Assembly (NCBI GenBank): GCA_963809895.1
Contig: CAWELD010000003.1
Location: forward strand, 3,232,001-3,296,000
Source of the DNA: an uncultured Gemmatimonadales bacterium
GTDB lineage: Bacteria > Gemmatimonadota > Gemmatimonadetes > Longimicrobiales > Gaopeijiaceae
Length of the DNA stretch: 64,000 nt
Reading direction: 5' to 3'
Below, in pieces: positions 1-30,837 of the stretch (position 1 is its first letter; each line of letters starts with the position of its first letter). The notes below the pieces were generated by a model. That model was given only the letters and a program-made list of their open reading frames with translations, did no database searches and had not been told where the DNA came from. A program made the position numbers and the translations under genes.

Positions 1-680
1 CCCACGCCTTGCACCTGCGTGAGCACCCTCGTCTCCGGATAGTTCGTGCGCGCCAGCTCCTCGATCCAGCGATCCATCTCTCTGATCTGCGACGTGAGCT
101 CGGCGATCGTGTCGAGGACCGGGAGCAACGCCGCGTACAGCGGTTCGGGGATATCCTCCTCGACCTTCCAGTGGAAGCTCTCCGTCGAGCAGGGCGGCAA
201 CCGACCACCCATCGCCTTGACGGTCGAGCGCATGTGATTGACCAGCGCCGTCCGGGCCTCGACCAGGGCGCTCCGGGACCGGATCACCGCCAGGTCCGCC
301 TGCGCGTCCTCGCTCCGGTGGATGACCGGTGCCAGTAGCTTCGGATCGAGCCGTCCGACCCGAGCCAGGTACTCGGCATCGGCGCGGTCGCTCTTCTGAT
401 CGTTCTCGTAGATGAACCGGAGCTTGCGAGGATTGGCGACGATCACCTCGTGGCCCAGGCCGTGGAGCAGCCGACTGATCCACGGCGAGTGGGGCCCCAC
501 CTCGAGAACCACCCGCGTCGGCTCCTCGCGCTCGAACCGACGGGTCAGCGCCGGCGCCGAGGTCGAGAGCCGCGATTCCTCGACCACCTCGCCCGACGCG
601 TCCACCACGCACAGGTGACTCACTCGGTCGCTCACGTCCAATCCGATTGTCCGCTCCGGTGCCTTCGCCGTATCTTGCAT
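1..680 (-). CDS. IS110-family (DEDD) transposase, 5' part; runs off the window start
   Basis: Manual minus-strand translation from ATG at 680 (RBS GGAGG upstream): MQDTAKAPERTIGLDVSDRVSHLCVVDASGEVV...VVLEVGPHSPW...VANPRKLRFI...KSDRADAEYLAR. This gives the DEDD RuvC-like catalytic pattern. Absent from the ORF track because it is open at the edge. Confidence 0.9.
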   Translation of the reverse strand, partial: MQDTAKAPERTIGLDVSDRVSHLCVVDASGEVVEESRLSTSAPALTRRFEREEPTRVVLEVGPHSPWISRLLHGLGHEVIVANPRKLRFIYENDQKSDRADAEYLARVGRLDPKLLAPVIHRSEDAQADLAVIRSRSALVEARTALVNHMRSTVKAMGGRLPPCSTESFHWKVEEDIPEPLYAALLPVLDTIAELTSQIREMDRWIEELARTNYPETRVLTQVQGV

Positions 681-682
681 TC

Positions 683-780
683 GGCCAACCTCCGTGCCTT
701 GGGCTTCGAGCCCGCTTCTAGTTTGGGGCGCCCGAAAGGGTAACCCCGACTCCGCCGGGGGTTGGCCTTCTCATTTCATC
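683..780 (-). ncRNA. Candidate IS110 bridge-RNA-like structured leader
   Basis: GGCCAACC (683-690) and GGTTGGCC (760-767) close a stem that contains sub-hairpins GGGCTTCGAGCCC and CCC-GAAA-GGG. IS110 elements are known to encode guide RNAs in non-coding ends. Confidence 0.45.
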
Positions 781-793
781 CCACGAGCAGCTG

Positions 794-838
794 GAAGACC
801 CTGGCGGAGCGGGCGGCACTCAGCGTCACCTGCGAGTG
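794..838 (+). repeat. Conserved intergenic motif copy A (CTGGC-N20-TCACCTGCGA), promoter-like
   Basis: Near-identical to 30689-30733 (3 mismatches in 45 bp). Lies ~40 bp upstream of the first cassette G|TT site. Confidence 0.8.
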
Positions 839-1052
839 AGCGGTTGGGACGGGGGCCGGTTCGGAGGCCCTAGAACGTTATCAGCCATTGCCCGGACGAG
901 AGGATCGCGGGAGCGTGAGTGAGGCATGCTGCGCGCCGCGCGCCTCTGGCCGGGTGCGGCCCGGAGGTCGAGGATCTTGCGAGCATGAGTGCCCGGAGCA
1001 AGTGTTGGCGAACGAGGAGGGCCCTCCCGAGCGAGTGAGGGGTAATCAAAGC

Positions 1053-1280
1053 ATGAACTACCGAGACCGAATCACCATCGAACCAGGCAAGCGGAGCGGC
1101 AAGCCGTGTATCCGTGGCATGCGGATCACGGTTTCGGACGTGCTCGACTACCTGGCGTCCGGGATGACGGAGGACGAGATCCTGGCGGAGTTCCCAGATC
1201 TCGAGAAGGACGACATCAAGGCGGCTCTTGCGTTCGCAGCGGACCGGGAGCGTCGGTTGATGTCGGTGCCTCCAGCATGA
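1053..1280 (+). CDS. DUF433 family antitoxin
   Basis: MNYRDRITIEPGKRSGKPCIRGMRITVSDVLDYLASG...DIKAALAFAA is a classic DUF433 sequence. Confidence 0.92.
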   Translation: MNYRDRITIEPGKRSGKPCIRGMRITVSDVLDYLASGMTEDEILAEFPDLEKDDIKAALAFAADRERRLMSVPPA

Positions 1281-1284
1281 TCCT

Positions 1285-1617
1285 GTGAAGCTCCTTTTCG
1301 ATCAGAATCTCGCTCCCCGCTTGGCTCGCGATCTCGCCGACATCTTCCCGGGCTCGGTGCACGTTCGTGGCCTGGGAATGGCACAGGCCTCGGATCGACA
1401 GATCTGGGATCACGCGAGAGAGGAGGGCTTCGTGATCGTGTCGAAGGACAACGACTTCCAGCAAATGAGCTTCGTATTCGGCGCTCCGCCGAAGGTCATC
1501 TGGATCCGCCGCGGGAACTGCAGTGTGGAAGAATCCGCAGGGGTCCTGCGGGAGAACGCAGCTCGGATAGGCGAGTTCGAGATCGATCAAGTGGCTACCT
1601 ACCTTGTCCTGTCCTGA
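1285..1617 (+). CDS. DUF5615 PIN-like toxin (VapC45-like)
   Basis: MKLLFDQNL...D..IW..A....IVSKDNDF...GAPPKVIWIR; directly follows DUF433. Confidence 0.9.
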   Translation: MKLLFDQNLAPRLARDLADIFPGSVHVRGLGMAQASDRQIWDHAREEGFVIVSKDNDFQQMSFVFGAPPKVIWIRRGNCSVEESAGVLRENAARIGEFEIDQVATYLVLS

Positions 1618-1630
1618 CAGACGGCAACGG

Positions 1631-1734
1631 CTGATAACAGGCTGGGTTGCCACTCGCGTCGGCCTGCGGCCGGTGCGGCCCTTCGGGACACCCGCCCCGC
1701 GGGCGGGCGTCGGGAACCGCCGGAACGTTATCTG
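1631..1734 (+). repeat. attC-like recombination site 1
   Basis: R'' CTGATAAC lies 14 bp after the stop codon and R' GTTATCT at 1727. Inner pairing GGTT(G)CC/GGAACC has one extrahelical base. R'' is complementary to the cassette start GTTATCAG at 877. Confidence 0.75.
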
Positions 1735-1790
1735 AAGCTGGCTTCGCAACCCCCACTCACGCGTCGCGACGGGAACTGACTCGGAGGCTC

Positions 1791-1819
1791 TGGCGTAAGT
1801 ATACCAGTATCGGTATACT
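1791..1819 (+). promoter_or_regulatory. Sigma70-like promoter with palindromic operator for the TA operon (probably leaderless mRNA)
   Basis: TGGCGT-N17-TATACT; inverted repeat AGTATACC/GGTATACT (1798-1819); ATG 6 nt after the -10. Confidence 0.7.
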
Positions 1820-1824
1820 CGTTC

Positions 1825-2193
1825 ATGAGTGACGCGACGCCCAAGCCGGTGTTCTGGCTCGGATCGGCCCGATCGGACCTACGCTCGTTCCCGGAGGAGG
1901 TCCGCACGGACGTGGGCTTCGCCCTCTGGGTGGCACAACGGGGTGGACGGCCCGCCCAAGCGAAGACGCTCAAGGGAATCGTCTCCGGTGCGGGCGTGCT
2001 CGAGCTGGTCGAGCGCCACGACGGGGACACCTATCGGGTGGTGTACACAGTACGGTTCGCGGATGCCGTGTACGTACTCCACGCATTCCAGAAGAAGTCG
2101 AAGCGCGGAATCAAGACGCCGAAGCATGAGATCGACCTGATTCGGTCGCGGCTCAAGGCCGCGGAAGAGCACTACGGTGGGAGCGGACGATGA
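1825..2193 (+). CDS. RelE/HigB (Gp49-like) toxin
   Basis: W.GSARSDLRSFP...GDTYRVVYTVRF..AVYVLHAFQKKSK.GIKTP. Confidence 0.9.
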   Translation: MSDATPKPVFWLGSARSDLRSFPEEVRTDVGFALWVAQRGGRPAQAKTLKGIVSGAGVLELVERHDGDTYRVVYTVRFADAVYVLHAFQKKSKRGIKTPKHEIDLIRSRLKAAEEHYGGSGR

Positions 2194-2519
2194 CCAAGGA
2201 CCAGATCGAGGAGAGTTCGGGGAACGTATTCGCGGACCTAGGTCTCGCCGAGGCGGAAGAACTCCATACAAAGGCTCAGCTTGCGCATCGGATCGGCGAG
2301 ATCGTTCGCGGTCGCCACCTCACGCAGGCCGAGGCTGCGGACGTGCTTGGTGCGACGCAGCCGATCGTCTCGAGGCTGATGCGTGGCCAGCTGCACGGAT
2401 TCTCGCTAGAGCGTCTCATGCGGTTCCTCAACGCTCTGGACCGCGACGTTGAGATCGTGGTCCGGCGCCGGCCACGGAGTCGAGATCACGGCGAGACACG
2501 GGTGAAGGTCACCGGCTGA
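2190..2519 (+). CDS. HigA-like XRE/HTH antitoxin
   Basis: SSGNVFADLGL...LTQAEAA..LG.TQP.VS.L..G....FSLERL; ATGA overlap with the toxin. Confidence 0.9.
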   Translation: MTKDQIEESSGNVFADLGLAEAEELHTKAQLAHRIGEIVRGRHLTQAEAADVLGATQPIVSRLMRGQLHGFSLERLMRFLNALDRDVEIVVRRRPRSRDHGETRVKVTG

Positions 2520-2610
2520 CCCGTCGAGTAACGACAGTCACCCGCTTGGAGAGACGCCCGAGTTGGGTTCGTTTCAGCCGCTCTGGTTCTCCGACCAGCG
2601 AAGCCATCAA

Positions 2611-2703
2611 CAGATAACTCCAGGCTCCCGGCTCCGCACCGCTGAACGCGGCGCTCCGTCCCAACTGGCCTCGGCCGTCTCTCCGGTGAGCCTCATGTTG
2701 TCC
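2611..2703 (+). repeat. attC-like recombination site 2
   Basis: R'' CAGATAAC is complementary to the cassette start GTTATCTG (1727). Stem AGGCTC-CCGG / CCGG(T)GAGCCT; R' GTTGTCC at 2697. Confidence 0.75.
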
Positions 2704-2717
2704 GGGAGGGCTGAGCC

Positions 2718-2948
2718 ATGAACGACGAGTCTACAAAGGATGAGGTGGTCGAGGAGTTGAACCGATTGGCCGAAGCCGATCGGCGTCGGGTCCTGGACTA
2801 CGCTCGTTCACTCGGCCGCCGCGTCTCGAAGGGCGTGGCCGGCGACTCACTTCTGTCGTTGGCTGGGTCGTTACCAGAGGCGGAGGCATCGGCCATGGAG
2901 GCGGCCATTGAGGATGGGTGTGAGCGAGTGAACCTCGGTGCCTGCTAG
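2718..2948 (+). CDS. Putative antitoxin (VapB-like)
   Basis: Small ORF with RBS, overlapping a downstream PIN gene. Confidence 0.7.
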   Translation: MNDESTKDEVVEELNRLAEADRRRVLDYARSLGRRVSKGVAGDSLLSLAGSLPEAEASAMEAAIEDGCERVNLGAC

Positions 2949-3324
2949 GGCACTTCTCGATACGAGTGCTGTCGTCGGGCTCCTGCGCGGCGATACGTCT
3001 GCAGTAAAGAAGGTCTGATCTCTGGACGAGGCATTCACGAGCATCGTGGTAATCGGCGACTCCTTTACGGAGCTCGCCTCTCGACGGGTGCAGAAACGAA
3101 CCTGGCGCTGGTTGCCTCGTTTGCGTCGTCGATCACCGTCCTCGCCTGCGACCGCGTGACGGCGGAAGCGTACGCACGTCTGAAGCATGGCCTGCGAGCC
3201 AAGGGGCGTCCGATCCCGGATAACGACCTATGGATCGCGGCCACGGCGGCGCGAGCGTGGTGACCCTCATCTCACGCGACGCGCACTTCGTGGTATCGAG
3301 GAACTCGGCCACGAGTCCGTGTAG
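2938..3324 (+). pseudogene. VapC PIN toxin, multiply frameshifted
   Basis: ALLDTSAVV... and LRAKGRPIPDNDLWIAATA...LISRDAHF lie in different frames. Confidence 0.8.
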
Positions 3325-3471
3325 GCCTCGAGCTTCATAAACGGGACGTTACGCGAAAACCGACACCGACCGGAGAGACGTGGCGTTCAGGAGTCGAACG
3401 CTGCAGCGTAGGGTATGGGGTGAAGGTCGGAACTGGGTGGGCTCGCGCCAACTGGTTGATTTGGAGGACGG

Positions 3472-3700
3472 ATGTCGGAGCGAATCGTCTCGGACCCTGA
3501 GATTATGCTTGGTAAGCCCGTGGTCCGTGGCACTCGGATCACGGTGAGAGCATCGTCGAGCGACTCGGAGCCGGCGAATCGGTTCAGGCGATCGTCGATG
3601 CCCATCTACGCCTCACGCGACAAGACGTCCTCGCTGCGATCGCCTTTGCTGCTGAGGCACCAAGTCGGTGGGTGCATACCGGATTTCCACCGGCGCCGCG
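3472..3700 (+). pseudogene. Second DUF433 antitoxin, frameshifted
   Basis: MSERIVSDPEIMLGKPVVRGTRITV followed by frame breaks. Confidence 0.8.
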
Positions 3701-3920
3701 TGAAGCTCCTCTGCGACGAGGGAGTCGAACGCCATATCGTCGACGCTCTGCGCTCGTCCGCTCACGAGGTCACCTACGTTGCCGAGATCGCTCCAGCATC
3801 CCAGCGGAGGTCCTCCGGCGGGCCGCCGAGCGGGAGGCCATCCTGGTCACCTCTGACAAGGACTTCGGTGAACTCGTCTACCGGCAGGGACGAGCGCACG
3901 CAGGTATTGTCCTGCGGGAC
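3700..3920 (+). pseudogene. Second DUF5615 PIN-like toxin, frameshifted and truncated
   Basis: MKLLCDEGV...HEVTYVAE / EVLRRAAEREAILVTSDKDFGELVYRQG. Confidence 0.8.
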
Positions 3921-4175
3921 TGGGATGGAGTCCGAGCGCTCTTCTACCCGAGCGCCCTTCTTCATAGCGAACTGACCTTGCCGGACAGGAGCCACCAGTC
4001 CGGGACTTGGACGGCTCTCCGGACTCTGATCCCGTGGGGCGCGGCATCAATGCCGTACATCTTCTGCGCCGGGACGGGGCGTGGCGCATCACCGGCCTCA
4101 TCTTCCAGATGGAGAGAGGCACGGCCGGGATTCCAGATCGCTACCTCTGACCTGCGGGTACCTGGACACGGGCCG

Positions 4176-5001: not shown

Positions 5002-5250
5002 TGGGAGGGGGTTCCTTCAGGCCTGGCGCGTTCGTGACGGCCGCCTTGTGGAGAGTTGGTGGGCGCCGGGTCTTGCTGAATGGTGAACCTCGTGCGGGGC
5101 GGCCATCGCTGGCACCGCCTGACCAGGGTTTCAGCCTCACGGCGGAGGCCGGAGGGTCGGCTGGTTGTTCGGCTTGCACCTACAACCGCCGCTGCGCATG
5201 TTGCTCCCGCGCGTTGAACCCCAAGTCTTCAGGCGGCGGAGGACGTCGAC

Positions 5251-6387: not shown

Positions 6388-6848
6388 ATGGCAATAGGGA
6401 TGACAGGATGGAAGGAAGTGATAGCAGCTCTCGGAGTCGTCCTCTCACTCGTGTTTGTCGGCTTCGAGGTTCGGCAGAACACGAGGGATCCCAGGCTACG
6501 GTACGCAATGATCTGGCTACGGCATCTCGGGAGTACCTGCTCGCGCAGGCGACAAGCCCTGAGTTGAGCGCCGCCTACGAACTCTGGCTCAGCGGTGGAG
6601 AGATAGCCCGGTTCAAGACCGGATGGTGATGACCTCCACCATGGCCTTGATTCGCAACATCGAGAACGTCTTCCTCCAAGCGGAATTGAGGAGCATCAGA
6701 CTCTGACGTTGTCGGGTCGTTTGAGCCATGAGAGCCCCGATCTTTCAGTCTGAGAAGTTTCGACAGTTCTGGGAATCAGGGACCAGGGGCAGCGTAGACC
6801 CCGGATTCGCGGAGGCCTTTGGTACGGCGAACGGGTATTAGGGCCTGA
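6388..6848 (+). pseudogene. Same family, paralog 3, frameshifted
   Basis: WKEVIAALGVVLSLVFVGFEVRQNT followed by frame breaks. Confidence 0.55.
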
Positions 6849-6860
6849 AAGGGAGACCTG

Positions 6861-7625
6861 GTGGCGAATTCTGCTCACACACATCGACGAGGGCACCCTC
6901 TGCTGGTCGAGGGCATCGTCATTCTTGCCAGTATTCTGGTGGCTTTCTGGTTGGATGGATGGCGTGCAGACCGTGAAATGGATCGCGATCTCACCCAGGA
7001 GTTGGAAAGCGTCTACCGCGAGGTCCAACGGAACCGGGACCTGGTGGTCGCCGAGTTGATCGTCCTCAACCGACTCACGGCGAGCGCGGATGCGCTGTTG
7101 GCTGACCTCAGCGCCAGCCCACGATCATCGACGATGGCGGTCACGGATTCGATCGCCTGGCTCGCAACGTCCTGGTCCGCGACCATCGATCCTTCACTGG
7201 GCGCCGTGCAAGCCATGATCGACTCGGGCCGGCTGGCCCAGGTCCCCAACCCCCGGCTCCGGCAGGGCCTCGCGGGGCTGAGGGATCAGTTCGAGGACGC
7301 CGTCGAAGAGGAGGTGTTGGCCCGCGAGGTATTCAGCAATCAGATATTTCCGCTGACTCGGGACCGCTTGGACTATCAAGCCTTCGGCGCACTCTTGCCG
7401 CAGCTCCTGGGACCAGCGAGTGGCGGCAGGCTGAGTCAGGAGAGCTTGTCCAAGCGGTCGTTTCCCACCCAAGGAACGATCGAGTACCCGAACAGCCCTG
7501 CCATTCGCAATGCCTTGGAGTTGAGGAGGGAATGGAACGTCGCGGCTCAAGATGAGATGGCCCAGCTGAAGATCGTCCTGAATGAACTTCTTACGGCCCT
7601 GGAAGACGAGTTGGCGGATCAATGA
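6861..7625 (+). CDS. Hypothetical N-terminally anchored helical protein (DUF6090-like)
   Basis: LLVEGIVILASILVAFWLDGW; paralogs at 12569, 14186 and 61883. Confidence 0.7.
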   Translation: MANSAHTHRRGHPLLVEGIVILASILVAFWLDGWRADREMDRDLTQELESVYREVQRNRDLVVAELIVLNRLTASADALLADLSASPRSSTMAVTDSIAWLATSWSATIDPSLGAVQAMIDSGRLAQVPNPRLRQGLAGLRDQFEDAVEEEVLAREVFSNQIFPLTRDRLDYQAFGALLPQLLGPASGGRLSQESLSKRSFPTQGTIEYPNSPAIRNALELRREWNVAAQDEMAQLKIVLNELLTALEDELADQ

Positions 7626-7650
7626 TCTTTCCCGTCGCACAGATTTCGGC

Positions 7651-7717
7651 TCTCCAACAAGTTTTCGCGGCTCTGGCGCCGGACGTTGCAGGTGAATGTT
7701 CGAACATGCCGTTGGAA
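7651..7717 (+). repeat. attC-like site
   Basis: TCTCCAAC 26 bp after a stop codon, GTTGGAA at 7711; 67 bp in total; short TTCG/CGAA inner pairing. Confidence 0.5.
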
Positions 7718-7755
7718 AGACATCGGGGTGGGCACTTCGGCTGGGTGGACGTGAC

Positions 7756-8506
7756 ATGAAACCGGAACTGGGCCTCGGACGATGGGCAGGCGGAGCGGCG
7801 ACGGCTGTTGCGCTGGTCATGACCGGCTGTCAGGCCGGAGGCGATGGGCCAAGAGAACCCGAATCGACCGCCCTCGACCTGGTTCTGGAGCCGGTGACAG
7901 TAATCGGTGAGATCGAGGGGCCGGCGGACTACGTGTTTGGAGATGTGCGTGCCGTTGCGGTCGACGATCAGGGCCACGTCTACGTAGGAGCCCGGATCGG
8001 AGCAACGGTTCGGGTCTACTCAGCGCGAGGGGAGTTCATCACCGGCGGAGCTGTCTAGCGACACGCTGATGGTGCCATACTACGCGGGGATGGAGGCGCA
8101 GCGCACGGCGTTCGATCTCATCGGGCAGTCGAACGGCCGCATCGTCGAGGGACTGAGCCACATGCCGTTCGCAGCTGTTCCCACGTGGGACGTATCCGGC
8201 CGAGGAACGGTCCTTAGCACGGACGGAGACAGTGGTGACCTCTTGGAGTCGACCTTTGGAGGCGACACCGTCGGCGTCCTGGCGTTGGCGAGCAGCCCCC
8301 GCCGCCCCATCCCCCCGGCGGAGCGCGCCGACAGCCTGAAGGCCTTGGAGGCCCGCATCGATTCGCTTCCCGTCCCGCTGGACGAGGTCGTGAACCTCGG
8401 GAGGGGTGTCGCTGATCGGCATCTCCCGGAGTTCCTCCCGACGACGGTATCCTTGCGGGTCGCGACAGGTGGCCTGATTTGGGTAGAGCGGTGGCCCCAA
8501 CATTGA
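7756..8506 (+). pseudogene. 6-bladed beta-propeller lipoprotein, internally deleted or broken
   Basis: Signal peptide ending LVMTGC, then IGEIEGPADYVFGDVRAVAVDDQG; C-terminal part is in a separate ORF (8069-8506). Confidence 0.65.
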
Positions 8507-8518
8507 GGCTCCGACGTC

Positions 8519-8642
8519 TTCCAACACGGTGCCGAGAGACTCGCGCGGTAGGTAGGTGGGCTGCATGTGCCTCTTGAACTCATATGCCCCGTACCAGATT
8601 TCGAAAACAGCTTGGTGAAGTGCGGCAAGCGTGCCGTTTCCT
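8519..8642 (+). repeat. Possible attC site closing the 7711 cassette
   Basis: TTCCAAC R'' with extended complementarity to 7711-7726; candidate R' GTT at 8636; TGCCG/CGGCA pairing. Confidence 0.35.
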
Positions 8643-8656
8643 CAGGGAGCTATCCG

Positions 8657-9826
8657 ATGACCGCCCCGAACCAGATCGTGCTGCTGATCGCGCTCGGCTC
8701 CGTGTGCGCGACGCCCGCCATCGCTCAGCAATCCACCGGAGAGAGGGCGAGAGATCTCGGCATTCCGCTCAATGGGACGCCCGGGTCACACAACGCCATT
8801 ACGGATGTGCCCGGCGTTGAGGTCGGCTATTCGACCGTTGTCAAAGGAACGGGCGCCTGGCGAATCGGCGAAGGACCTATTCGGACAGGTGTGACGGTCG
8901 TTTTGCCACGAGGGAAGACGGAGGGCTCCTACAACGTCGGTCAATTCGTGTTCAATGGCGACGGCGAGATGACCGGCGTCCCGTACATCCAGGACTATGG
9001 CCGGGCTGGAGGCCCCATAGGCATTACCAACACCAACAGTGTCGGCGTTGTCAGGGATGCAATCGGGGAGTGGATGTACAGGAGGTTTGCTTCCAACGGT
9101 CCGATGGATTTCTCATTCGGCTTGCCCATCGTCGGCGAGACCTGGGACGGCGGACTCAACGACATCAATGGCCACCACGTCAAGCGGGAACACGTATTCG
9201 AGGCGATCGATGGCGCCGCGGGTGGGCCTATCGCCGAGGGCAATGTAGGTGGGGGGACGGGGATGACCTGCTATTGGTTCAAGTGCGGAACCGGCACGTC
9301 GTCCCGGGTGCTACGGATCGGCACGAGGGACTATACCGTTGGTGTGCTTGTGCAGGCGAACTTCGGCAGACGGGACGATCTCGTCATCGCCGGCGTACCG
9401 GTCGGGAAGGAGATCACCGACTTCGACATGGTGGGGGCACCGGAGCAGGACGGGTCCATCATCATCGTGATCGGGACCGACGCACCTCTGACTTCGTCAC
9501 AGTTGAATCTCGTTGCAAGACGGGCAACGCTAGGGATGGGGCGCACGGGAACAATCGGCGACAGCCGATCCGGCGATATCTTCCTCGCGTTCTCGACGAA
9601 TACCGGGCAATACGATGAGGCGACCGACATCATCTCGGCCGATCGGCTGTCCACAGCAGGACTCAGTCAGGTGTTTCGCGCTACCGTGGAGGCAACAGAA
9701 GAGGCAATCATCAACGCCCTCGTTGCTGCCAAGGACATGGAGGGAATCAACGGGAACAAGGCATTCGCGATTCCACACGACAGGTTGCGAGAAGTAATGA
9801 GGATGTACAACCGACTGACACCATAG
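8657..9826 (+). CDS. dmpA: P1 family (DmpA) L-aminopeptidase/D-esterase with signal peptide
   Basis: RARDLGI...NAITDVPGVEVG...EGNVGGGTGM...QANFG...DGSIIIVIGTDAPL (Gly-Ser autocleavage site)...SGDIFLAFST. Confidence 0.9.
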   Translation: MTAPNQIVLLIALGSVCATPAIAQQSTGERARDLGIPLNGTPGSHNAITDVPGVEVGYSTVVKGTGAWRIGEGPIRTGVTVVLPRGKTEGSYNVGQFVFNGDGEMTGVPYIQDYGRAGGPIGITNTNSVGVVRDAIGEWMYRRFASNGPMDFSFGLPIVGETWDGGLNDINGHHVKREHVFEAIDGAAGGPIAEGNVGGGTGMTCYWFKCGTGTSSRVLRIGTRDYTVGVLVQANFGRRDDLVIAGVPVGKEITDFDMVGAPEQDGSIIIVIGTDAPLTSSQLNLVARRATLGMGRTGTIGDSRSGDIFLAFSTNTGQYDEATDIISADRLSTAGLSQVFRATVEATEEAIINALVAAKDMEGINGNKAFAIPHDRLREVMRMYNRLTP

Positions 9827-9965
9827 GCCGCTGTTCGCCAGGCTATTGCCTCATCTCGGGCCTACTACTGCCCCTGGGGCTCGAGAGGTCGCGAAGGGAA
9901 GTGAGGGCCGCTTCGTAGATCCTAGATGTGGACCCCATAGCACAGCTTCCTGGAGCATCTCTTTG

Positions 9966-10433
9966 ATGCACCGCCCCGTGGACCCGGACTCGCCTCGACA
10001 CAATGATGAACAGACGTTGATCCGACGTGCCCTACGGCTGGGCGCCTGGCCTGTGGTAATCGCCCTGTTCATCACTCCGATTCGCTTCTTCCTCGAATTG
10101 GCAGGCGTCCCGACGGTCTACGTGTTCCTGCTCGGACTGCTCTGGTTGTCGTTGGGGCTCTCAATCTACTGGGGCTTCAGATTGTCCGCCGAACCCCATC
10201 CGTACCGGCTCCTTTGGTTGAGTCTCGCGTTCTTCTCACCCCCTTCCAGGTTTCCGGTGTTCCTGCTCTGGTGGATTACCACCACCTGGGGGCTTGGCAC
10301 CCACTACAACATCTTTGACAGCTGGGACCAAGCGCTCGTCGGGCAGCTCTTCTACGGGTCCCTACTCCAGATCATCCCCGGTGGCTTGCTGGGTTCACTG
10401 ACGCTCGCTATCAGACGGGCAAGAACTGCGTGA
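9966..10433 (+). CDS. Hypothetical membrane protein
   Basis: About four hydrophobic segments. Confidence 0.65.
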   Translation: MHRPVDPDSPRHNDEQTLIRRALRLGAWPVVIALFITPIRFFLELAGVPTVYVFLLGLLWLSLGLSIYWGFRLSAEPHPYRLLWLSLAFFSPPSRFPVFLLWWITTTWGLGTHYNIFDSWDQALVGQLFYGSLLQIIPGGLLGSLTLAIRRARTA

Positions 10434-10500: not shown

Positions 10501-10575
10501 GTCACTCAGGCTTCCGGCTCCGCGCCGCTGAACGCGCGCTCTGTCCCAATTCGCTACGCGGAAATACGCCTCATG
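10501..10575 (+). repeat. Degenerate (dead) copy of attC site 2
   Basis: 10507-10549 matches 2621-2664 at 40/44 positions and also ends in GCCTCATG, but AAC has become CAC and GTT is lost. Confidence 0.7.
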
Positions 10576-11647: not shown

Positions 11648-11750
11648 ACCGGCGCCCGCACCTGACGGGTCAGGGCTGGCCCTTGCATGCGCGGGCGCCG
11701 GTGAACCCGGGCGGTCCGTCTGAGAGCGGTTCCCAATGGAGGCAAGCAGG

Positions 11751-12255
11751 ATGCATCCGGCTGACGATCAGGTAGCGAAGGTCTTGCACTGGATCAGCGA
11801 TGTCTTCGCCCGGGCCGGCGCACAGTATCAAGTCGTAGGTGGACTCGCCGCGCGTGCGTATGGGGCGACTCGTCCTCTCGTCGACCTCGACTTCTACGTC
11901 TCGAGCTCGAGACATGCCCCGAGTATTGGTAACTGTGGGCGACTCCTGCGTGTGGGGGCCCGAGCACTTCAGGGACGAAAACTGGGATCTGACCTTCGCC
12001 AAGCTCGAGAAGAACGGTGTGCAGATTGAGGTGGCCGAAGCAGAAGGGGCTCGGTTCTACAGCCCGAGTGCCGGCCGATGGCTAGACCAGAACATCGCAT
12101 TCCATGACTCCGATAGGAGGGTGATTCTCGGAGTGGAGATGGAGGTCATGCCAAAGGATCAGCTCGTCGAGTACAAGAGAGCTTTGAATCGACCGGTGGA
12201 CCGATTGGACCTCAGCGAGATTCTTGGAATGAGGTTGAACGAGAGGCACGAGTAA
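11751..12255 (+). pseudogene. Nucleotidyltransferase-fold protein, frameshifted
   Basis: VVGGLAARAYGATRPLVDLDFYV (GG...DxD motif), continued in another frame. Confidence 0.7.
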
Positions 12256-12568
12256 GGCGGTCGGGGAGGATCCCCGTCCGTGAACTGGGGATTCATGATG
12301 ACAGCACAGGCTTCGGGATCGGGGTCGTCCTTTTCGCATGGGCTCCGACCGCCGCTCTCCGCGCACGTGTCCGAGAGCTGGAAAGCCGACTCGGTAGCTC
12401 GTGACAGGGGTCACCTGGCCGCTCGTGGCGGTCGCCTACCAAGCGATCGCCGGTCAGCCCACGGCTACTTGCAGCAACACAAATTCTGGCATACTACGTT
12501 GAGGCCACGCCGTCTGCCGCATCCGCGGCGGGTCCACGGACAAGCCAGAGAACCTCTACCACGCGCCG

Positions 12569-13319
12569 ATGGCCGCCGAGACCTCCCGCAGGCAGCGTTG
12601 GATCAAGCTCGGCCTCGAGTCCGCTGCCGTCTTGCTGAGCATCCTGACCGCGTTCGCGATCGACGCTGGCTGGGACCACCACACTGCCCGCCAGGATGAG
12701 CAGGCGGCGCTCGCCAGACTGCTCGACGAGTTCGAGGCCAACCAGGAAGAACTGGAGGCAGTCCGAGCGGGCCATCAGATCCTGCACGACAACGGGGTTC
12801 AACTTCTCCGGGTCGCGTACGGCCTCAGTCAGCCAGCGAGGAATCCCCCGAGCAACTTCGCCGTGTGCTCGGAATGTCGATCTACTTCGACCCGAGCATG
12901 GGGGCTCTGAACCGATTCCTTGCGAGCGACGAGACGGGAAACGTGGCCGGCCCCGAGCTTCTCGATCGGCTCGCGGGCTATCCCGCGAAGGTGGACGAGC
13001 TCTGGCAACAAGAACGGATGCTGCGGGAGATGATCGCTAGCTCATCGACCCCTTTGTCGTTCAATCCGCAGACCGACTCGTCCTCCTGCCCCCTGCCACG
13101 TCGTCGGAAGACCTGCAGAGCCTTCGAACTGAGGTGCCCCGTCAGGTAGACACCGAGATGCTCATGTCGCTCCTCGCGCAGCGCGAACTCCGCAACCTCA
13201 TCACGACACGGGTCATCCTCGAAGCACAATCGCTGATGAAATACGAGGTCGTGGCGGCCGAGTTCGACGCGATCTTGACCGAACTCCGCAGGATCGCGGG
13301 GACGGGTGAGCATCCCTAG
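12569..13319 (+). pseudogene. DUF6090-like anchored protein, frameshifted in three pieces
   Basis: LGLESAAVLLSILTAFAIDAGW; ORFs at 12569, 12865 and 13134. Confidence 0.65.
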
Positions 13320-13397
13320 ATCCTCCTCTCGCTCGGGAGCCTGCCAGATGGGGAATTCGCGACTGCGGACAGAAGTCTCAGCGCGCGGTAATCGTAG

Positions 13398-14129
13398 GTG
13401 GTGCATGCAAGCTCTCCTACAGAAAGTGACTCATGCGTGATTGGTCTGATCCTTCTGGCCGTGTCCTTCGTCCTGCTGCGGCTCGAAGGGAAGAGTCTCA
13501 GGTCTATCGGACTCGACAAGCCGGCCCAACGCTCCCGGGAGTTTCTGGTCGGGCTCCTCGCCGCCGCACTGGTGGTGGTCGTTCAGCAGCTGGGCCTCGC
13601 CATCTCAGTCGGAACGAGCTGGACCGTAAACCCGGCGTTTGATGCTTCGCTGGGACTCGAACTCCTCAGGCTGAACGTCAATTCAGTCCTGTTCGAGGAG
13701 CTCATGTTCCGCGGGTACCTCCTCCTTCTTGCGATCCGGTACCTGGGTACCCGCCGAGCGGTCGTGGCGGACGCCGTACTCTTCGGGATCTATCACTGGT
13801 TCAGCTACGGCGTAGTCGGCGACCCCGTCTCGATGTTCTTCGTCTTCATACTGACCGCGTCGGCTGGCATGATGTTCGCGACGGCGTTCGCGGCGACCGA
13901 ATCCGTCATTGCCCCGATCTCGCTGCACCTCGGATGGAATCTGACGAGCTACGGCGTGTTCTCTGGTGGCCCGTGGGGCCCGGGGCTGCTGCTCCCGTCT
14001 GATGGCTCGGTGCCATTGCAGGCGGATAGCGCGACGGGATTGCTTCTGAGCCTGGTCTTGCCGATCGGATTTGCGGTTGGCACGACACTGTTTCTGCGTC
14101 GCTTCGCGCTCCGTGGTCGACTACCTTGA
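13398..14129 (+). CDS. CPBP/Abi family intramembrane glutamic endopeptidase
   Basis: EELMFRG, FGIYHW and LHLGWN motifs. Confidence 0.88.
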   Translation: MVHASSPTESDSCVIGLILLAVSFVLLRLEGKSLRSIGLDKPAQRSREFLVGLLAAALVVVVQQLGLAISVGTSWTVNPAFDASLGLELLRLNVNSVLFEELMFRGYLLLLAIRYLGTRRAVVADAVLFGIYHWFSYGVVGDPVSMFFVFILTASAGMMFATAFAATESVIAPISLHLGWNLTSYGVFSGGPWGPGLLLPSDGSVPLQADSATGLLLSLVLPIGFAVGTTLFLRRFALRGRLP

Positions 14130-18758: not shown

Positions 18759-18778
18759 GGCGATGGCTCGCGAGCCCA

Positions 18779-18898
18779 CCCTGGCGCAACCGACGGCAAT
18801 CAGCGTAACCTGCGAAGGGAAGATATGAACGGGGGATTGGCCCGTAGGTGGTGGGCGACCCAGCCTCCTGACGACGAAGAGGAGAATGAAGAGATGTC
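18779..18898 (+). repeat. Motif copy B within a 120-bp duplicated leader
   Basis: About 99/120 identical to 19884-20002 by manual alignment. Confidence 0.85.
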
Positions 18899-19853: not shown

Positions 19854-19883
19854 TGGGCAGCTCGGAATGGACGGCGCGCAGGA

Positions 19884-20002
19884 CCCTGGCGCGGCAGGCG
19901 ACGCTCAGCGTAACCTGCGAACGGAAGACGTGAGCGGGGCTCGGCCCGGAGCCGGTGGGCGACCCATCCTCCTGCCGACGAAGAGGGGAATGAAGCGATG
20001 TC
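19884..20002 (+). repeat. Motif copy C within the 120-bp duplicated leader
   Basis: CCCTGGCGC...TCAGCGTAACCTGCGAA...GGTGGGCGACCCA.CCTCCTG.CGACGAAGAGG.GAATGAAG. Confidence 0.85.
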
Positions 20003-30670: not shown

Positions 30671-30688
30671 GGGGCCGGGGGTCGAGCC

Positions 30689-30733
30689 GAAGACCCTGGC
30701 GGAGCAGGCGGCACTCGGCGTAACCTGCGAGTG
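30689..30733 (+). repeat. Motif copy D
   Basis: GAAGACCCTGGCGGAGCAGGCGGCACTCGGCGTAACCTGCGAGTG. Confidence 0.85.
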
Positions 30734-30837
30734 GCGCCGTTGGATGAGGCTGCGCCGACCAATCGCTTCCGCGGCACCAGCGAGCCCAGAAGCAGAGAGG
30801 CTCGGGGGGACTCGGGCAGGAACACAGGAGCTGAACA

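Follow-up and report, generated by a model that had tools for sequence, protein, structure and literature searches.

Paired cassette ends with a recurrent A/G mismatch in arrays headed by XerA-like recombinases that lack the IntI insertion

In the available text of Bouvier 2009 (PMC2727003), most integron cassettes are described as self-pairing over 9 to 11 consecutive complementary nucleotides, and an extrahelical base sets the choice of strand for IntI. The co-evolution of this base with the I2 domain of the integrase is presented as a chicken-and-egg paradox in the accessible portion of Escudero 2016 (PMC4792948), which also describes XerCD recombining a folded single strand that mimics a duplex, without extrahelical bases, in the case of CTXphi. 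The dif site consists of 11-nt arms around a 6-nt spacer (PMC8371274, in the section available).

The array described here shares with classical integrons (sedentary chromosomal integrons; VchIntIA-VCR, 2A3V) tandem cassettes bounded at G|TT, a foldable site after AAC, own-end pairing beyond 7 bp, and toxin-antitoxin, defence-like, and ORF-less cassettes. In contrast to classical integrons, the array recombinase lacks the IntI insertion and carries an extra N-terminal domain, the att sites are long and lack the L-box extrahelical base, and the outer stem has about 15 bp with a fixed wobble rather than 9 to 13 perfectly paired bp. Judged from sequence, the array is integron-like in layout and lacks two of the features by which integrons are recognized, the IntI insertion and the extrahelical base. 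As in the Xer/dif systems (XerA, XerC, or XerD with dif; 4A8E, 5HXY), the recombinase is closest by sequence to 4A8E and positive for NF040815, but it heads a cassette array, and no arm symmetry was seen at the putative attI. An IntI-based finder (method in the available part of bioRxiv 10.1101/2022.02.06.479319) would probably call the array a CALIN or miss it, although, unlike a CALIN, it has an intact recombinase and an attI-like site at its head.

The window analyzed (the whole stretch of 64,000 nucleotides, G000:C3:3232001-3296000) holds two cassettes near the tail of this array (Table 1). The names of its closest proteins point to Gemmatimonadota. The initial annotation had reported long cassette-specific inverted repeats at both, and these were borne out far above chance. 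The start arm matched the reverse complement of the end arm at 15 of 16 positions in cassette 1, where the lone mismatch was an A/G pair at position 11, and at 18 of 21 positions in cassette 2; the start of one cassette and the end of the other shared merely 6 consecutive matches. With the first 4 bases fixed and 65% GC, the binomial chance of such pairing was 5.5e-6 for cassette 1 and 3.5e-6 for cassette 2. When the whole window was scanned for GTT...AAC pairs with a separation of 200 to 3000 bp and 13 or more of 16 positions matched, 10 pairs were retained; the top rank went to cassette 1 (15), and cassette 2, with 13 over its first 16 bases, was on par with several unrelated pairs. Cassette 1 is a typical member of the array and cassette 2, with G/G at position 11, an atypical one. 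All four arms, start and end, lay outside reading frames.

The identity of both units as gene cassettes was supported. To judge from the protein families, each looks like a toxin-antitoxin pair: in cassette 1 the DUF433 gene would be antitoxin-like and the DUF5615/PIN-like gene toxin-like, and in cassette 2 we take the Gp49/DUF891 gene, by its family label, to encode a HigB/RelE-like toxin and the HTH gene, presumably, a HigA-like antitoxin. An Rfam scan of the window gave no match, and a promoter scan of window positions 700-2800 gave no sigma-70-type site.

Table 1. Features of the two cassettes and their surroundings (window positions unless a contig is named)
Feature	Position	Strand	Remarks
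XerA-like tyrosine recombinase, 367 aa	C3:3211291-3212394	array strand	ends ~760 bp before array
IS110-family element, 5' part	1..779	-	transposase ORF from 680 to beyond 1; Pfam DEDD_Tnp_IS110 E=6e-20
IS-split att, 3' half, up to the cassette 1 G|TT crossover	780..876	+	82-87% identity to intact array att copies
Cassette 1 start arm	877..892	+	A at position 11
DUF433 gene (cassette 1)	1053..1280	+	Pfam PF04255 E=8e-27
DUF5615/PIN-like gene (cassette 1)	1285..1617	+	Pfam PF18480 E=1.6e-32, PIN_10
Cassette 1 end arm	1623..1638	+	reverse-complemented, has G at position 11; G-T wobble once the bottom strand folds
Cassette 1 att body (folding site)	1639..1726	+	from the fold; by eye slightly decayed
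Cassette 2 start arm, atypical	1727..1747	+	G at position 11; mismatches at 9, 10, 12
Gp49/DUF891 gene (cassette 2)	1825..2193	+	Pfam PF05973 E=7e-25
HTH gene (cassette 2)	2190..2519	+	Pfam HTH_37 E=4e-27
Cassette 2 end arm	2598..2618	+	pairs with 1727-1747
Cassette 2 att, truncated, 5' part only	2619..2681	+	97.9% over 954 nt to C3:3227267-3228220
Headless second copy of upstream antitoxin/PIN cassette	2681..3342	+	97.2% over 465 nt to C3:3226446-3226910

The array starts at C3:3213152, about 19 kb upstream of the window, and consists of tandem cassettes bounded at G|TT with foldable sites between them, whose att copies were mapped. Curation by eye gave 18 cassette starts over about 21 kb, 16 of them with a recognizable end. 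Over positions 5 to 16, own ends had a mean of 9.0 of 12 matches compared to 4.2 for 236 cross pairs; none of 100000 permutations reached the observed sum of own-end matches, and A/G stood at position 11 in 11 of the 16 scorable cassettes. The first cassette is preceded by a non-hairpin site with an AAGGAG core (at about C3:3213144-3213160), a putative attI; sites like it are also found behind related recombinases. No resemblance to the outer arm was seen by eye in the inner att arm or in the left arm of the putative attI. The AAGGAG-core pattern had only three matches in the genome; the two others (C3:3223828-3223840 and C3:3227257-3227270) replace the full att hairpin at internal junctions.

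Mobile elements and duplications have altered the array around the two cassettes. Elements of the IS110/IS1111 group that target att sites are known, and here an IS110 insertion splits the att upstream of cassette 1, the 5' half of which lies at about C3:3231267-3231316. The array has two copies of cassette 2, identical in 872 of 893 columns, and the second copy has a full 150-nt att (C3:3228158-3228307). The end arm of the headless PIN cassette (about 3325-3342) pairs with the start of the upstream copy, with A/G near position 11 if one gap is allowed. Upstream, the PIN cassette precedes cassette 2, whereas the window has cassette 2, a cut att, and then the headless PIN cassette; this swapped order is the circular permutation that would be expected from a re-inserted two-cassette circle. 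Partial immobilization of both cassettes may be the present state, since the IS110 element splits the att upstream of cassette 1 and the att downstream of cassette 2 is truncated at 2681. Among the sequencing runs listed as holders, none was of RNA and the shares were small. In contigs from 2 of 4 sequencing runs, the att that follows cassette c6 was joined to a start of the c6 type; this junction was not counted as evidence of excision, since tandem copies, common among ORF-less cassettes, would produce it just as a circle would.

The array recombinase scored 210.6 bits against TIGR02249, under the cut-off of 265, and lay above the cut-off of NCBIfam NF040815 (XerA-like). Residues R222, K247, H313, R316, H339, and Y348, which are invariant in alignment A1, are all kept. 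The IntI insertion is missing, as an alignment gap that leaves about 59 residues, compared to about 100, between the KG and HxxR motifs. The closest solved structure by sequence was XerA 4A8E (E=4.5e-44), and the best Foldseek match was VchIntIA 2A3V. The recombinase also has an additional alpha/beta domain at its N terminus, about 75 residues long and confidently folded; for this domain Pfam returned only DUF5710 (E=0.094), the Atlas gave matches below 0.9, to hypothetical proteins, and Foldseek gave recombinases alone among the matches listed. A 'HARP-like' label for the domain found no confirmation.

In a quick tree of 115 recombinases (4 short rows dropped), IntI formed a single clade of 22 rows with an SH-aLRT value of 100, and the array-bearing recombinases were not grouped as a single clade. 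Cassettes with A/G at position 11, referred to as wobble cassettes, were found on the array side of 0 of the 22 IntI rows, one row having a single match on the other side; a wobble cassette lay downstream in 21 of the 93 non-IntI rows, many of which have short contigs, and a 34-row clade had none. The NF040815 search in Bacteroidota yielded mostly proteins of about 300 aa. Arrays start directly behind an insertion-less recombinase in several phyla; in the close relatives L034, L164, and L165, no array was seen in the DNA available. The genome has further Xer-like genes. IntI above the cut-off was absent from 9 of the 10 genomes chosen for insertion-less arrays, including the single-contig genome of the same genus, G299, and the adjacent enzyme is therefore favored as the recombinase of the array. 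One Bacillota insertion-less recombinase (L097) had four wobble-type cassettes upstream, the divergent layout of classical integrons.

The genome under study also has an intact canonical IntI integron on contig C10 (600921-601910; intI at L010:10921-11910). Matching ends of 10 to 18 bases were found in 11 of its 12 cassettes. The att models of the two arrays match nearly disjoint places in the genome. A single decayed IntI-type attC, which resembles the C10 sites, lies at window 5118-5227, in the stretch where the insertion-less array decays toward its end; the two systems may have exchanged cassettes. The intI gene on C10 faces its own array, as in most array-bearing Gemmatimonadota loci, and several C10 cassettes have a single end-pairing mismatch at position 6 or 7. 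Solitary att sites, one of each type, lie off both arrays at C3:1892756-1892913 (- strand) and C3:653417-653518 (- strand).

In order to compare end pairing across genomes, cassette borders were called from att bodies alone and duplicates were removed. A strict first version of the att finder overlooked many sites and ran cassettes together; the two-pass version that replaced it still misses some sites (among them the att of cassette 1 in the first pass), and merged cassettes were counted as misses. Loci without a called cassette were 4 of 9 in Gemmatimonadota, 12 of the 20 other insertion-less loci, and 1 of the 6 Vibrionaceae loci entered, and 7 of 20 gammaproteobacterial stretches without a clear array were left out. 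Median end pairing in IntI arrays was 11 nt in Gemmatimonadota (97 cassettes), 10 nt in Vibrionaceae (94), 9 nt in other Gammaproteobacteria (56), and 12 nt in class 1 integrons (6), with matches at background level by about positions 12 to 14. The initial annotation had taken about 7 bp of R''/R' pairing as the norm, which is contradicted by these controls, by the C10 array, and by the 9 to 11 nt given in the available text of Bouvier 2009.

Pairing in the insertion-less Gemmatimonadota cassettes (n=49) was longer, with a median of 15 nt, and position 11 was matched in only 6%. At positions 12 to 15 own ends matched in 73 to 84% compared to 37 to 38% in 456 cross pairs. Pairing beyond 7 bp is not in itself unusual, being routine in IntI arrays. 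In the noisier set from other phyla (n=19) the median was 9 nt; A/G occupied position 11 in 8 of the 11 cassettes with a paired core, and 2 more had an extra base at position 10. In total, at least 14 nt were paired in 42 of 68 distinct insertion-less cassettes versus 15 of 253 IntI cassettes, and A/G at position 11, combined with pairing at 8 or more of positions 1 to 10, was seen in 44 of 68 versus 1 of 253; kin are not independent in these counts, and Fisher p-values therefore overstate the contrast. Typical insertion-less ends have about 10 paired bp, then A (start) and G (end) at position 11, and then 3 to 10 bp more. In 54 cassettes, position 11 was A in 91% of starts and G in 89% of ends, so that folding puts a T-G wobble in the bottom strand and leaves the top strand with an A-C mismatch. 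Set against Xer/dif sites, which have two inverted arms of 11 nt and a single chromosomal copy, the conserved position lies 10 nt into the arm past the crossover, inspection by eye showed no clear symmetry of the arms, and the sites are multi-copy.

Pairing beyond 7 bp is already known, and what is new is a longer stem that bears a wobble and goes with a recombinase lacking the insertion. In the literature searched, neither a cassette system without the insertion nor the wobble at position 11 was described, although supplements and subscription papers may hold more. The signature at position 11 is a simple separator of two cassette pools, even inside one genome.

The att sites themselves also differ. 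Those of insertion-less arrays are long (median, 149 nt), and an extra base 8 to 10 nt into the R'' arm was called in 1 of 43 and 3 of 34 of them (4 of 77), compared to 75 of 82, 32 of 75, and 5 of 5 in the IntI groups (112 of 162). The heuristic under-calls this base, since just 32 of 75 sites were scored in Vibrionaceae.

In our view, the insertion-less, XerA-like recombinase probably drives an integron-like system whose cassette recombination site has these repeats as its outer stem. The strongest competitor, although unlikely, is that these are ordinary CALIN cassettes served in trans by the genome's IntI, with the known pairing of 9 to 11 nt (Bouvier 2009, PMC2727003, in the text available) slightly lengthened in a GC-rich genome and the neighboring recombinase a bystander. 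The intact C10 integron, which could act in trans and has long end pairing of its own, and the decayed IntI-type attC downstream would fit such a scheme. However, it does not account for an A/G mismatch that is frequent in insertion-less arrays and found in a single IntI cassette, for att sites that mostly lack the extrahelical base, for the near-separate matches of the two att models, for arrays placed directly behind insertion-less recombinases in several phyla, or for the absence of IntI above the cut-off from 9 of 10 genomes with such arrays.

Homologous cassettes offered a further view of the arms. A homolog of cassette 1 in G084 with 72% DNA identity kept the wobble; positions 6 and 9 had changed in a compensatory way on both arms, and over positions 5 to 16 no change affected one arm alone. 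This homolog recurs in L168, L170, and L171 within the same G|TT borders and with three different downstream neighbors, and there too it is followed by the att type of cassette 1. The homolog of cassette 2 in G299 (73% DNA identity) had very different ends that were still self-paired. Across 13 homologous pairs, which are not independent, changes were compensatory in 12 cases, one-sided in 15, and double but non-compensatory in 9, so covariation is present without being clean. DUF433 cargo in IntI-style flanks (L172, L217, L268) had 11 to 13 bp of pairing and no wobble, and most loci with DUF433 homologs lay outside recognizable cassettes.

Paired ends might instead be a footprint of how cassettes are created, an idea that the initial annotation had also raised, or of one arm being occasionally copied onto the other by template switching, with no role in recombination. 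Every cassette does have private ends, and the divergent self-paired ends of the G299 homolog would fit re-writing or, equally, long co-evolution. Yet copying would remove rather than preserve an A/G mismatch at one position, and a mismatch fixed across phyla is unlike the copying of one end; in addition, the length of pairing follows the type of recombinase and not the cargo. As the main cause, this origin is disfavored and we regard it as improbable.

The proposed role of the arms as an outer stem makes a prediction about folding that could be evaluated in silico. As the initial annotation had pointed out, the arms lengthen the R-box stem only if a cassette's own ends flank its own att, that is, in the circle. 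Circularization supported the expected difference for both cassettes: the bottom strand of cassette 1 folded at -40.4 kcal/mol in the circle versus -29.4 kcal/mol in the array, with core pairing of 0.98 versus 0.09, and that of cassette 2, given the intact att of its second copy, at -49.4 versus -42.0 kcal/mol with core pairing of 0.95 versus 0.00. For the group comparison, the first 30 usable cassettes of each set were folded. The median circle-minus-array difference was -9.5 kcal/mol in insertion-less arrays (n=30; core pairing, 0.98 versus 0.29), -6.4 kcal/mol in IntI Gemmatimonadota, and -2.6 kcal/mol in Vibrionaceae. IntI cassettes likewise pair past 7 bp, and the advantage of the circle is thus a general cassette trait that is larger in insertion-less arrays. 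Folding gave a more stable structure for the bottom than for the top strand in 23 of 30 insertion-less, 13 of 30 IntI Gemmatimonadota, and 18 of 30 Vibrionaceae cassettes, the edge in the insertion-less set being small (median, -1.6 kcal/mol).

The gain in folding comes mostly from positions 8 to 10, which are common to IntI cassettes. With 7, 10, and 16 of its own bases, cassette 1 reached core pairing of 0.60, 0.97, and 0.97; because 10 own bases suffice for full core pairing, folding alone leaves positions 12 to 16 unexplained.

The arms could also act within the array, with long-range pairing of own ends in single-stranded DNA joining the flanking att sites or keeping those sites unfolded and the cassette thereby locked, which agrees with the stability of the arm duplexes alone (-17.9 and -19.4 kcal/mol, bottom strand) and with the mostly unpaired cores of the array form, but loops of 0.2 to 2.4 kb would have to close and the fixed wobble at position 11 is left unexplained, so that we give this action little credence, even though it can coexist with an outer stem.

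If the repeats do serve as outer stem of the recombination site, folding of the bottom strand of an excised cassette would bring the cassette's own start and end together in a duplex of about 15 bp beside the crossover. This duplex may give the recombinase a full binding arm, the arms of Xer sites being 11 nt long. The circle would then be a far better substrate than the array form, so that insertion is favored and loss is limited; for IntI, low folding lowers excision (PMC5371416, in the text available), and a bias of insertion-less arrays toward insertion and retention would follow from the poor folding of the array form. The G-T wobble (A-C in the top strand) could, in the most speculative part of this scheme, be a selected mark for picking the bottom strand, or it might stop a double-stranded 3' end from serving as a binding arm. 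Speculatively, it would stand in for the extrahelical base read by IntI as the mark of strand and direction.

A broader proposal, which we put forward tentatively and consider rather less likely than not to hold in full, is that such arrays make up a second widespread integron class, without the IntI insertion or extrahelical bases, in which a wobble-marked long outer stem sets strand and direction, and that they are the intermediate demanded by the chicken-and-egg problem of the I2 domain and attC. That paradox becomes testable with a cassette system that lacks both the I2 insertion and the extrahelical base and in which another fixed asymmetry lies beyond the R box. Finders based on IntI would overlook or mislabel such arrays in Gemmatimonadota, Bacteroidota, and other phyla.

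Several smaller observations concern the tail of the array and its cargo. Beyond the end of the headless PIN cassette the att is reduced to 5 nt, followed by the next GTT start (window 3348), and a second, frameshifted DUF433/DUF5615-like pair lies at window 3472-3975. Fragments of the array att family occur further downstream at window 10507-10561, 18778-18835, 19876-19920, and 30685-30744, which suggests a decayed cassette tail reaching to at least about 30 kb. Another insertion sequence, with a transposase-like but broken ORF (C3:3214511-3216020), occupies the G|TT crossover where a cassette begins, and an element with a similar end is found at the equivalent spot in L170. Three cassettes of about 315 nt without a clear gene (C3:3213152-3213472, 3213626-3213941, and 3218252-3218566) are 79 to 91% identical, and repeated cassettes of 200 to 205 nt occur in other arrays (L033, L068). 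One cargo gene has two copies in the array region, at window 11736-12255, where it is apparently frameshifted, and at L009:16318-16857. Further cargo in L009, labeled from PADLOC and Pfam matches, comprises a PDC-M30/M41-like pair (8566-10333), an OLD/Gabija-A-like ATPase-Toprim gene (11911-13653), and a kinase-TPR gene (6773-8338).
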